NCBI GenBank assembly: GCA_964505325.1
Contig: CAZDHT010000001.1
Location: 10,430-74,429 of the forward strand
Reading direction: 5' to 3'
DNA: 64,000 nucleotides
Source of the DNA: an uncultured Planctomycetota bacterium
GTDB taxonomy: Bacteria; Planctomycetota; PUPC01
Positions 12,965 to 36,304 of the stretch are shown in pieces. Numbering within the stretch: the first letter of the stretch is position 1; every line of letters begins with the position of its first letter. Under the pieces are notes generated by a model. The model was given only the letters and a program-made list of their open reading frames with translations. It did not search any database and was not told the origin of the DNA. The translations under genes and the position numbers were made by a program.

Positions 12965-12986
12965 CTTCACTTGGCTGAAGTGTTAC
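12965..12986. repeat. 22-nt hairpin motif CTTCA-cttggc-TGAAG-TGTTAC, site 1
   Basis: 20-nt exact match (reverse complement) at 25794-25813 and a 20/22 match at 23498-23519. Confidence 0.6.
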
Positions 12987-23497: not shown

Positions 23498-23519
23498 CTT
23501 CAAATGGCTGAAGTGTCAC
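23498..23519. repeat. 22-nt hairpin motif CTTCA-aatggc-TGAAG-TGTCAC, site 2 (5' of secE)
   Basis: 20/22 identity with 12965-12986. Confidence 0.55.
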
Positions 23520-25079: not shown

Positions 25080-25757
25080 ATGAAGAGAAGCAAACGGTAT
25101 CGCGCGGCGGAAGGGACGGTGAGCCGCGACAAGAGCTACCCGCTGGCCGAGGCCCTGAACGTGATCAAGTCGCAGCCCTCGGCCAAGTTCGACGAGACCA
25201 TCGAGATCGCGGTCAGCACCGGCCTCGACCCCAAGAAGCCCGATCAGTCGGTGCGCGGGACGATTTCGCTGCCCAAGGGCATCGGCAAGACGCTGCGGGT
25301 CATCGCGTTCTGCCCGGAGGACCAAGCGGAGGCGGCCAAGGCGGCGGGCGCCGTCGAGGCGGGCGGCGAGGAACTGGTGCAGAGGGTGAACGACGGGTGG
25401 CTCGACTTCGACGTGGCCATCGCCGCCCCGTCGATGATGCGGTTCGTCGGCCGGCTCGGCCGGCTCCTCGGCCCGAAAGGTCTGATGCCGGCGCCCAAGT
25501 CCGGCACGGTCACCGAGGACGTCCCGGCCGCAGTCAGCGAGTTCGCCGCCGGCAAGATCGAGTACCGCGTCGACGCCGGCGGCAACATCCACGCGCCGGT
25601 GGGAAAGAAATCTTTTCCCCCCGAGGATCTGACGGCGAACATCGAGGCACTCATCGACCAGATCCAGCGGTCGAAGCCGTCCACCGCCAAGGGCAAATAC
25701 ATCAAGAGAATCTGCCTGTCGTCCAGCATGGGACCAGGCGTCACGGTGGCAGTGTAG
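25080..25757 (+). CDS. rplA: 50S ribosomal protein L1
   Basis: Full-length L1 homology (KRYRAAEG...GKYIKRICLSSSMGPGVTV). Confidence 0.95.
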   Translation: MKRSKRYRAAEGTVSRDKSYPLAEALNVIKSQPSAKFDETIEIAVSTGLDPKKPDQSVRGTISLPKGIGKTLRVIAFCPEDQAEAAKAAGAVEAGGEELVQRVNDGWLDFDVAIAAPSMMRFVGRLGRLLGPKGLMPAPKSGTVTEDVPAAVSEFAAGKIEYRVDAGGNIHAPVGKKSFPPEDLTANIEALIDQIQRSKPSTAKGKYIKRICLSSSMGPGVTVAV

Positions 25758-25764
25758 GCAATTG

Positions 25765-25784
25765 CGGATTGTGGATTGCGGATT
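25765..25784 (+). promoter_or_regulatory. rplJ leader: tandem (C/T)GGATTG x3 repeat
   Basis: CGGATTGTGGATTGCGGATT; exact reverse complement of 27141-27159 in the rpoB leader. Confidence 0.5.
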
Positions 25785-25793
25785 TGTTGCGGG

Positions 25794-25813
25794 GTAACAC
25801 TTCAGCCAAGTGA
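25794..25813. repeat. 22-nt hairpin motif, site 3 (reverse orientation; 5' of rplJ)
   Basis: GTAACACTTCAGCCAAGTGA is the exact reverse complement of 12967-12986. Confidence 0.6.
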
Positions 25814-25838
25814 CCCGCAGCCCGAAATGGAGTCCTGA

Positions 25839-26396
25839 ATGCCCAGCAGGCTCAACAAGCTAGTCGTCGATGAGTTGAGCGCGAAGTTCCGCGAGGTGGA
25901 CACCTGCTTCTTTGTGGACTTCACCGGCTTGTCCGGCCGCAAGGCCGCCGACCTGCGTTACCAGATCCGCTCGGCCTGCGGAGGAGACACCACACTGACC
26001 GTCGTCAAGACATCGCTCGCCAGGCGGGCGCTCGCCCTGGCTGCCGACGGACAGGACCTTGCGGACGGGCCTGTGGGCGAATACCTGGAGGGGCCCACCG
26101 CGATCGCCTACGGCGCGGGTGACCCCGTGCTCCTCGCCCGGACCCTGGCGGACTGGGCCAGGAAAGAAGCGTCGATACGGTTCAAGGGCGGGTTACTGGT
26201 CGGCCGCCCGCTGGCGCCCGATGCCGTGGCCGAGCTGGCGAAGATCCCGCCCAAGCCCATTCTGATGGGGCACGTCGTCGGGATGATCGCCGCGCCGCTC
26301 ACCTCGCTGTTGAACGTCGGCAACGGGCTGATCCGCAAGCTCCTCGCCCTGTGCGATGCGTTGGCCAAGAAGAACTCCGAAGCGGATTCTGAGTGA
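25839..26396 (+). CDS. rplJ: 50S ribosomal protein L10
   Basis: L10 homology; preceded by an in-frame 3-codon uORF (ATGGAGTCCTGA) abutting the start. Confidence 0.9.
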
Positions 26397-26410
26397 AAGG
26401 AGAAGAGAGA

Positions 26411-26815
26411 ATGTCCGAAGCAACACCCGAACCGGCCGGCAAGGTGGCCGAAGCGCTCGAACTGATCTCGGGCATGACGGTTCTCGAATTGTCCGAGTTC
26501 GTCAAAGCCGCCGAGCAGAAGTTCGGCGTGACCGCCTCCGCACCGATGGCGGTGGCTGCGGGGCCCGGCGCCGCCGGCGCGGACGCCGCGGCAGCGGAGG
26601 AGAAGAGCATGTACGACGTCGTCCTCGTCGCCGCCGGAGACCAGAAGCTTCAGACGATCAAAGTCGTCCGGCAGCTCACCACGCTCGGCCTGAAAGACGC
26701 GAAGGCGCTGGTCGACAGCGCGCCCAAGCCGCTGGCGGAAGGCGCTTCGAAGGAAGAGGCCGACAAGATGGTGGCGGCGCTGGAAGAGGTCGGCGCCAAG
26801 GTCGAACTCAAGTGA
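26411..26815 (+). CDS. rplL: 50S ribosomal protein L7/L12
   Basis: Start chosen at MSEATPEP (AAGGAG RBS); Ala-rich hinge and C-terminal [41 protein letters not shown]. Confidence 0.9.
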
Positions 26816-26884
26816 TTCTGGACTGTGCATTGCAGATCGCGCAGAGCTGATTCCGCAATCCGAGGTCCGCAGTGGAGTGCTGCC

Positions 26885-27109
26885 ATGAGGTTTTTCAAGA
26901 TCATCGTGGAGAAACACCTTGACGGCTACGTGGCATACCCGCTGGGACTGAAGGGAATTGTCGTCGGGCAAGGAGAAACCTACGAAGATGCTCTTTCCGA
27001 CGTAACGTCCGCAATCCGATTTCATGGCCAGACGTTCGGAAAGGAAGCATTGGAGGTAGAGCCGCGGATTGTTGAAGCCTTCGTCGCCGAAGCAGGGATA
27101 GAAGCTTGA
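26885..27109 (+). CDS. HicB-like (UPF0150 family) antitoxin-type small protein inserted between rplL and rpoB; no HicA partner
   Basis: MRFFKIIVEKHLDGYVAYPLGLKGIVVGQGETYEDALSDVTSAIRFH resembles the HicB/UPF0150 N-terminal fold; GC ~52% versus ~66% in neighbours. Confidence 0.5.
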   Translation: MRFFKIIVEKHLDGYVAYPLGLKGIVVGQGETYEDALSDVTSAIRFHGQTFGKEALEVEPRIVEAFVAEAGIEA

Positions 27110-27140
27110 TGGTTGTGGACGGCGGACGCGATCTGCTCAC

Positions 27141-27172
27141 GCAGCCTTGGATCCGCAATCCACAATCCGAAA
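27141..27172 (+). promoter_or_regulatory. rpoB leader: CAATCC/AATCC x3 repeat, complementary to the rplJ leader repeat
   Basis: ATCCGCAATCCACAATCCGAAATCCGAAATGG; 19-nt exact reverse complement of 25765-25784; a degenerate third copy at 26848-26879 upstream of the hicB-like gene. Confidence 0.5.
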
Positions 27173-27190
27173 TCCGAAATGGAGTGCGCA

Positions 27191-31603
<4,413 letters not shown>

Positions 31604-31693
31604 AGACCCAATGCGTGAATCCCGAGCCTCAACCGGCCACTCCTCCGCGCACGCCGGGGCGTGGCCTGTCGATATTTTCCTATGGAGGTGCTG

Positions 31694-36304
<4,611 letters not shown>

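Follow-up and report, generated by a model that had tools for sequence, protein, structure and literature searches.

Among the bicistronic arrangements of the toxin gene hicA and the antitoxin gene hicB, Class 2 hicBA is the commonest. In this class a small HicB without a DNA-binding domain is encoded upstream of hicA; HicB binds HicA and blocks its RNase activity, and solitary hicB genes are also mentioned (Gerdes 2024, mBio 15:e03293-23, PMC10865869). A gene of this kind is found in a 64,000-nucleotide (nt) stretch of DNA from an uncultured Planctomycetota bacterium (assembly GCA_964505325.1, contig CAZDHT010000001.1, positions 10,430 to 74,429 of the forward strand), referred to here as the window. 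It is a 74-codon hicB that lies between rplL and rpoB with no hicA beside it, and it is very probably the antitoxin gene of a Class 2 hicBA cassette that was inserted as a unit and whose hicA was later deleted in this strain.

Several features tie the locus to Class 2 hicBA. In relatives the order is hicB-hicA, HicA has about 80 residues and the two genes overlap; HicB genes of the class have 63-103 codons and the one in the window has 74. It differs from that class in that the window lacks hicA, and relatives with the cassette at the same site have ACG in place of the hicA ATG. The promoter region of the module has also been lost, and the gene, with a host-type leader in front of it, is part of the rplJL-rpoBC operon and belongs to no defence island or mobile element. 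The structurally solved HicAB systems of Burkholderia pseudomallei (6g1n, 6g26), Yersinia pestis (HicA3B3; 4p78, 4p7d) and E. coli (6hpb) have an N-terminal β3-α-β domain, the one that binds HicA, and the predicted model of the window protein has the same domain, at a sequence identity of 14-23%. They differ in that their HicB has about 135 residues, with a C-terminal ribbon-helix-helix (RHH) or helix-turn-helix (HTH) domain that autoregulates the operon, and the gene order is hicA-hicB (PMC10865869). The UPF0150 protein TTHA1756 of Thermus thermophilus (2yzt), with about 70 residues and no established function, has the same single domain. It is the sole match in a search of the Protein Data Bank (PDB) with a profile of the family, and a weak one (E = 0.26).

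Identity of the 74-residue protein and its partner

The genes of this region lie on the plus strand in the order tuf - rpmG - secE - nusG - rplK - rplA - rplJ - rplL - rpoB - rpoC. The rplL stop is at 26815 and the rpoB ATG at 27191, a start choice that yields a 1470-residue protein matching the recorded one. In the spacer between them a first-pass annotation, made from the sequence alone, had placed a 74-residue open reading frame (ORF) of UPF0150/HicB type. The position and strand of that ORF (Table 1) are confirmed, as is its low GC content of about 52%. The measured values are 52.4% overall and 57% at third codon positions (GC3), compared with 66.7% and 84% for rplL and 65.9% and 92% for the body of rpoB. 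The low-GC tract is wider than hicB, running from 26816 to about 28000, owing to a low-GC insertion in rpoB itself. A GGAG motif occurs 8 nt upstream of the hicB ATG. The flanks of the ORF are 69 nt (5') and 81 nt (3') and not 67 and 80 nt as annotated, and they are, as had been remarked, too short for a HicA gene. When the HicA of a relative was used in a tblastn search of the entire 64-kb window, no match was obtained. The 81 nt behind hicB are native spacer, and a complete type II toxin-antitoxin (TA) module is not present at the locus.

The protein is a small HicB antitoxin without a DNA-binding domain, of Class 2 hicBA type. Homologues are numerous (6,447 at E ≤ 0.01) and nearly all have 72-74 residues; the best 120 of them are 74-99% identical to the window protein. 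Some are labelled 'HicB family antitoxin' or 'HicB family nuclease' by NCBI/JGI, and COG1598 is also given. A search of species representatives, with one genome per species, returned 421 stretches with a relative. In the best 80 of these, the set analysed below, identity to the window HicB is 64-84%, and the phyla include Planctomycetota, Chloroflexota, Nitrospirota, Desulfobacterota, Zixibacteria, Acidobacteriota, Bacillota and others, plus Methanosarcinales archaea. Such conservation across phyla points to a horizontally mobile gene. The window HicB retains all 29 of the 29 invariant positions of the family.

Structure prediction agrees with this assignment. A model built with AlphaFold from 40 homologues (predicted local distance difference test, pLDDT, 67) has the topology β-β-β-α-β, with strands at residues 2-11, 14-19 and 28-30, a helix at 33-47 and a final strand at 64-72. 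It is consistent, with moderate strength, with the partial RNase-H-like fold of HicB. When the model was compared with the PDB by Foldseek, all ten of the ten best matches were HicB antitoxins or the related 3kwr (probability 0.8-1.0, E 0.03-0.6). For the top chains 6g1n, 6g26, 4p7d and 6hpb the probability is 0.87-1.0, E 0.03-0.3 and the template modelling (TM) score 0.54-0.68. These matches, together with the pairing with HicA across the family, uphold the reading of the product as UPF0150/HicB-type. A C-terminal RHH or HTH domain, as in the classical HicB of Classes 3 and 4, is not found in the 74-residue, single-domain model. The length of the protein, its single domain and the 72-75 residues of its homologues fit Class 2. 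A PDB search with the single sequence gave no match, and PADLOC and PHROGs searches of the protein gave nothing informative.

The partner of this family is HicA. PF07927 (cut-off 27) recognizes the HicA of L002 (related contigs are designated by L numbers) at 37.7 bits, and a PHROG 'toxin' family matches it too. An intact gene of 80 codons lies within 15 nt downstream of hicB in 59 of the 80 loci, and the hicB stop mostly overlaps the next start (TGATGG). A truncated or frameshifted hicA remnant is present in 17 loci and none in three; the remaining locus is at a contig edge. The two-gene module, with hicA intact or decayed, is thus found in 76 of 79 informative loci. An adjacent HicA characterizes the family as well as the relatives with hicB at the same site (L002-L005); in the window it is absent. 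Toxin loss with retention of the antitoxin is common in this HicB family: in 20 of the 79 informative loci the toxin is lost or truncated and hicB still has its full 72-74 codons. Another planctomycete (L006-L008 and L022) has a solitary hicB, 79% identical, between panC and panD in the pantothenate operon. Only short remnants of hicA (the first 10 and last 17 codons) follow it, a second case of the antitoxin surviving within a housekeeping operon.

Alleles of the rplL-rpoB site

Three alleles occur at this site. The empty one is represented by L019 and L133, with a 195-nt rplL-rpoB spacer and an RpoB of 1238 residues; relative to the window, RpoB is 96% identical in the part compared and RplL 90%. 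The more distant L167 and L168 have no gene at the site either, their spacers being 132-178 nt long. These four contigs and the low GC3 of hicB bear out the earlier suggestion that a foreign gene was inserted in a normally gene-free spacer. The further suggestion that the small gene was inserted alone fails, since L002 and L003-L005 carry hicB and an overlapping hicA of 80 codons at the same site. In this second allele the order is rplL - 69-nt leader - hicB - hicA - about 35 nt - second rplL end (34-35 nt) - spacer - rpoB. L002 is close to the window: its HicB is 98.6% identical, with 3 nt of difference between the hicB alleles, and the two DNAs agree at about 98% of positions from rplL as far as the final base of hicB. 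L003-L005 form a second clade, with HicB 88% identical to that of the window. The third allele, with hicB only, is that of the window. Twelve contigs encode an identical HicB, and each of these that extends past the stop has the junction seen in the window; four contigs from four samples (L013, L014, L016 and L018) are 100% identical to the window as far as 27549-27694. Many other contigs end 15-108 nt after hicB, and L001 ends just before the hicB stop. Coexistence of several alleles in the populations sampled would produce breaks of this kind. Decay of hicB in place was considered as an origin of the 'empty' spacer of L019 and rejected: its interior aligns with leader plus hicB no better than shuffled sequences do (76 of 500 reach the score).

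As judged from the alignments, the orphan state of the window hicB is secondary and due to a deletion of hicA. The last nine bases of hicB, …GAAGCTTGA, are followed in L002 and L003 by CGGCGAAGTTCCCC…, which is hicA, and in the window by TGGTTGTGGACGGCGG…. The native spacer of L019 and L133 holds GAAGCTTGATGGTTGTGGACGGCGG…, which contains the same 9-mer. From this 9-mer to 28 nt inside rpoB the window is 93% identical to that spacer (118 nt, 8 mismatches), and the window and L009-L018 all continue past it into sequence 93% identical to L019 1652-1760. Since the switch from hicB to spacer falls inside the shared 9-mer, hicA was presumably deleted, either between short direct repeats or by illegitimate recombination with an empty-site strain. 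A microhomology deletion is plausible, not proven. In L002-L005 the usual start of hicA, TGATGG, reads TGACGG, leaving a weak TTG start, and this weakening seems, from the sequences, to have preceded the loss of the toxin gene.

The hicBA unit is flanked by a direct repeat of the rplL 3' end. The two copies (34-35 nt, 85-91% identity) were located with a repeat finder and are exactly 598 nt apart in L002, L003 and L005; the position of the left copy in the window was mapped from L002 by an offset of 25549. The downstream copy in L002 (…GCGCCAAGGTCGAACTGAAG) agrees better with the native rplL end of L019 than with the functional rplL end of L002 itself, which indicates that the downstream copy is the displaced original and that the functional end arrived with the unit. 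Between the window and L003, rplJ is about 70% and rplL 70-85% identical; the segment that begins 60 nt before the end of rplL and takes in the leader and hicB is 85-95% identical. The unit as a whole is about 90% identical across the two clades and has the same 598-nt geometry in both, and it appears to have moved between them. No transposase or integrase gene is present in the 598-nt unit, and its flanking repeat, being 34-35 nt of the rplL 3' end, is unlike the short target-site duplication of a transposon. With a copy of the highly conserved rplL end on either side, the unit might leave and return through homologous recombination.

The sequence in front of hicB appears to come from the host. 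Positions 26837-26884 appear to be a copy of the rpoB leader (AATCCG heptads, GGAG, ATG), and 26825-26843 resemble, in degenerate form, the 5' heptad arm that the native spacer of L019 has behind rplL. The first-pass annotation had called the two leaders variants of one motif, and the resemblance is clear: 26852-26887 and 27159-27193 agree at 29 of 36 aligned positions with one gap, a score that none of 2000 shuffles reaches. The repeat finder pairs 26837-26861 with 27137-27161 (25 nt, 76%), and about 50 nt correspond apart from an indel of one heptad. The 69-nt hicB leader looks like a compacted copy of the rplL-rpoB spacer, with the hicB ATG in the place of the rpoB ATG. A cassette-borne leader was considered and discarded: the leaders of 80 cassettes from other phyla are rich in AT, have a GGAGG of their own and are unlike that of the window. 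Given this different leader elsewhere, the sequence before hicB is most simply a copy of the host rpoB leader. The operon of L003 itself uses a heptad of GTTAATC type, so that the AATCCG-type hicB leader is foreign to L003. Taken together, the leader resembling a compacted spacer and the rplL-end repeat suggest that the stretch of host DNA reaching from the end of rplL to the start of rpoB was doubled, with the incoming hicBA genes in between. Of the 'target-site or leader duplication' annotated earlier, the copying of the leader thus probably holds. A target-site duplication does not, the repeat being that of the rplL end, 598 nt apart. The rpoB leader (AATCCG heptads then TGGAGTGCGCAATG) is native and is present in the empty-site L019, L133 and L020.

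The following course of events would account for these alleles. In an ancestor of the strain, or in a relative, a 598-nt unit would have been inserted in the rplJL-rpoBC operon. It would have brought a copy of the rplL 3' end, the compact host-type leader, hicB with hicA, and about 35 nt more, and the displaced original rplL 3' end would have stayed behind hicA as a remnant. A deletion of about 0.4 kb, or an equivalent recombination, could then have occurred between the two copies of GAAGCTTGA, one at the end of hicB and the other in the native spacer 82 nt before rpoB. Lost in this event would be hicA, the rplL remnant and ~105 nt at the start of the spacer, whereas the hicB stop would be kept. 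The product would be hicB fused to the native rpoB leader.

Alternative origins and the present role of hicB

Other origins of the locus have been weighed against insertion of a complete cassette followed by deletion of hicA. A chance open frame or an assembly artefact would be compatible with the lack of Pfam matches, and with nothing else. Thousands of homologues at 65-86% identity, the 12 contigs with the identical protein and four contigs that span the junction refute it, and this explanation has a negligible probability. It is very unlikely, too, that hicB was inserted alone and that the hicB-hicA pairs of the relatives are a separate or later acquisition. The window allele does lack any trace of hicA. 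However, two genes are the rule in the informative loci, L002 is about 98% identical to the window as far as the end of hicB, where its hicA follows, the unit has identical geometry in two clades, and the junction in the window lies within a 9-mer common to the native spacer, as a deletion would leave it. The resemblance of the two leaders could alternatively reflect a shared functional element, an initiation or processing motif arrived at by convergence and not by duplication. The rplJ leader ends in a similar …CCGAAATGGAGTCCTGAATG, the heptad motif is confined in the window to this operon (6 matches, 0.9 expected), and the heptads form inverted repeats that bracket rplJ-rplL. On the other hand, the similarity of about 50 nt takes in the non-heptad TCGCGCAG / TCACGCAG, with a clean indel of one heptad, and L003, with a different heptad in its own operon, has received this leader along with hicBA. 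A shared element is rather doubtful as the explanation of the leaders.

Several observations weigh against insertion of a Class 2 cassette and later deletion of its hicA. Pfam and NCBIfam searches of the 74-residue protein gave no HicB family (HicB_lk_antitox or UPF0150) at E ≤ 1, although some homologues bear HicB names. The structural E-values are weak as well (0.03-0.3) and the model is only moderately confident. A 9-mer shared between about 600 and 200 nt is expected about 0.4 times by chance. No relative was found with the exact allele that would have preceded the deletion, in which hicA leads into an L019-type spacer; the sequence of L002 behind its rplL remnant, where the contig ends, is unlike the L019 spacer. 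A metagenome scan with the 18-mer TGGTTGTGGACGGCGGAC gave 66 loci, 65 of them chance matches and the other L133, the second empty-site contig; it contained no pre-deletion allele. Finally, the search for a hicA paralogue covered 64 kb of the genome.

The gene may still be expressed. No sigma-70-like promoter was found between rplL and rpoB, terminator-like sites there are no commoner than chance and none is convincing, and a search of 25650-27350 against Rfam (both strands, gathering or E ≤ 1 thresholds) gave no match. Without a promoter or terminator in the spacer, and with GGAG before its ATG, hicB would be co-transcribed with rplJL-rpoBC and translated. From what is known of the family, its product would bind and neutralize RNases of HicA type.

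What such a product does now is a separate matter. The window hicB is somewhat more probably than otherwise a recently orphaned, near-neutral remnant. Another, less probable possibility is that, expressed constitutively with the rplJL-rpoBC transcript, it is kept by selection as an immunity ('anti-addiction') gene against incoming hicBA or against a paralogous HicA encoded elsewhere in the genome. A comparable function was reportedly described in 2008 by Saavedra De Bast and colleagues for a chromosomal ccd acting against plasmid ccd. By analogy, an antitoxin without its toxin could neutralize incoming toxins of the same family, although ccd was a complete chromosomal module. In favour of selection, the hicB ORF is intact at every invariant position, and in the 20 of 79 other lineages where hicA is truncated or gone hicB likewise persists. 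The family crosses phyla at 65-85% identity, which makes re-exposure likely, and the literature mentions solitary hicB genes (PMC10865869). Orphan HicBs are also not more diverged from the consensus than paired ones (85% and 83% identity, p = 0.17), a comparison biased by the choice of loci similar to the query. Against selection, the deletion is recent, as the 3-nt difference between hicB alleles indicates, so that an intact ORF is uninformative, and there is no second hicA within the window. An immunity role concerns the present and is therefore compatible with an origin by insertion and later deletion. Some other present role is unlikely.

Other features of the operon and their meaning

Coordinates of the features discussed are collected in Table 1. 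Heptads also form longer structures in the operon. The arms of the inverted repeat in the window consist of AATCCG-type heptads, 96% complementary and 1367 nt apart, and the empty-site L019 has the same pairing (493-508 with 1693-1708, 16 nt, 94%). Pairing of the two 23-nt arms could give a long-range RNA duplex, which may be a processing site. The hairpin in the window spacer has a fold-energy z-score of -2.8. Long hairpins built of heptads are found in the rplL-rpoB and rplA-rplJ spacers of relatives as well (L019 1538-1732, L167 2369-2500, L003 3784-3879 and 5530-5638). The heptad sequence varies by lineage (AATCCGC or GTTAATC type) and the architecture is kept, with fold z-scores from -2.7 to -3.6; these hairpins may be an attenuator or processing element of the lineage. 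A dispersed 20-21-mer, GGTAACACTTCAGCCAAGTGA, with the palindrome CACTT-N5-AAGTG, occurs in intergenic positions where none is expected by chance. The second copy in L002 follows the rplL remnant behind hicA.

Table 1. Features of the rplL-rpoB region and related sites, in window or contig coordinates
Feature	Sequence	Coordinates	Strand	Remarks
hicB ORF	window	26885..27109	+	ATG 26885, TGA 27107-27109; 74 codons, intact
hicB leader, host type, 69 nt	window	26816..26884	+	85-90% identical in L003
Last 9 nt of hicB with stop, GAAGCTTGA	window	27101..27109	+	presumed junction of the hicA deletion; also in empty-site native spacer
Native rplL-rpoB spacer, 3' part	window	27110..27190	+	hairpin 27111-27167, heptad leader, rpoB Shine-Dalgarno
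Final 34 nt of rplL, left copy of flanking repeat	window	26779..26812	+	right copy presumably deleted in the window
rplL-end repeat, left/right copies	L002	1230-1263/1828-1861		
rplL-end repeat, left/right copies	L003	4895-4929/5493-5527		
rplL-end repeat, left/right copies	L005	1842-1876/2440-2474		
hicB stop/hicA start with ACG change	L002	1557-1562		
hicB stop/hicA start with ACG change	L003	5222-5227		
Inverted repeat, upstream arm, 23 nt	window	25761..25783	+	rplA-rplJ spacer; complementary to rpoB leader
Inverted repeat, downstream arm	window	27151..27173	+	inside rpoB leader; arms bracket rplJ-rplL-hicB
GGTAACACTTCAGCCAAGTGA copy	window	25793-25813	+	
GGTAACACTTCAGCCAAGTGA copy	window	12967-12986	-	
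GGTAACACTTCAGCCAAGTGA copy	window	23500-23519	-	3 mismatches
GGTAACACTTCAGCCAAGTGA copies	L002	244-264, 1867-1887		
rpoB	window	27191..31603	+	1470 residues; 232-residue in-frame insertion

The insertion in RpoB is real and strain-specific, and we think it more surprising than hicB. It begins about 100 nt into rpoB and consists of about 27291-27314 (24 nt) and about 27328-27999 (672 nt), with a GC content of 53.8% and GC3 of 53%. In solved β chains the site corresponds to an N-terminal loop at about residue 48. The RpoB cluster at 90% identity has two members with the insertion (1470 residues) and two full-length members without it (1238 residues), which read FLQADIAPEKRKNRGLE and FQQADTAPDKRKSRGLE; the other two, one truncated and one frameshifted, also lack it. 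The four independent contigs L013, L014, L016 and L018 reach into the insertion and are 100% identical there. Its ends show neither terminal inverted repeats nor a clear target duplication, and a reading of the sequence revealed no intein signature.

Over its whole length the insertion aligns with small, free-standing proteins of phage type with 150-194 residues (P0189 and P0190), which match phrog_24538 at 3.6e-12 and 2e-6 and, weakly, the Pfam OGG family PF21790. END antiphage nucleases carry a domain of this family as their sensor, an inactivated EndoIII/OGG (PMC12191111). With PF21790 the insertion itself reaches 21.9 bits, short of the cut-off of 27 (E = 1.6e-4; positions 53-198 of the 201 in the profile are covered). 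Its AlphaFold model is all-α with a pLDDT of 50, and in a Foldseek search with this poor model all matches have E > 1, OGG1 chains recurring among the top ones. A word-based protein search returned no protein covering the insertion, and an exhaustive search of 1.84 billion representatives gave 4 weak matches only. The catalogued lineage-specific insertions in β are BEAN domains at five sites, in uD2, uD3, uD4 or uD5 (PMC11515920). They are unlike the present one in site and in fold, as far as the low-confidence, all-helical model can be compared with the BEAN fold; they are also lineage-wide, whereas the RpoB insertion is polymorphic among relatives at least 90% identical.

It is improbable, on present evidence, that a complete small gene of OGG-like or inactivated-EndoIII type has been inserted in RpoB as a folded, functional base-sensing or glycosylase module. 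In END nucleases the sensor domain of this family serves in the recognition of modified bases. If such a module is present, the polymerase would itself contain a sensor or glycosylase that acts on damaged or hypermodified bases, for use in transcription-coupled surveillance of lesions or to keep phage DNA from being transcribed. The orphan hicB would then be a mere neighbour, and the low-GC tract would represent two recent acquisitions in a core transcription operon. A whole OGG-like gene in RpoB, strain-specific and unlike the catalogued insertions of RNA polymerase, would merit a study of its own. In the adjoining rpoC (31661-36304, 1547 residues), two similar segments of about 30 residues were noticed by eye in β', which suggests a duplicated lineage-specific insertion.

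The window gene, to return to it, codes for an ordinary HicB antitoxin of Class 2, now without its toxin, and is unusual in its location. The empty, hicBA and hicB-only alleles of closely related populations would represent the stepwise entry of a TA cassette into a core operon followed by shedding of the toxin. They also offer an order for the decay of the toxin gene, a change of the start codon from ATG to ACG and then a clean deletion at a 9-nt repeat. The manner of entry has a parallel. Genomic islands enter the 3' ends of tRNA and tmRNA genes, bringing a replacement 3' end. The hicBA unit likewise supplies a working rplL 3' end, and the displaced original stays downstream as a direct repeat. 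It differs from such islands in its size of 598 nt, the lack of an integrase and its target, a ribosomal-protein gene. Housekeeping genes of the two clades differ by 20-30% and the unit by about 10%. The rplL-end repeats of this integrase-free unit and its shared geometry suggest that the rplL 3' end, like tRNA genes, can serve as an integration target.

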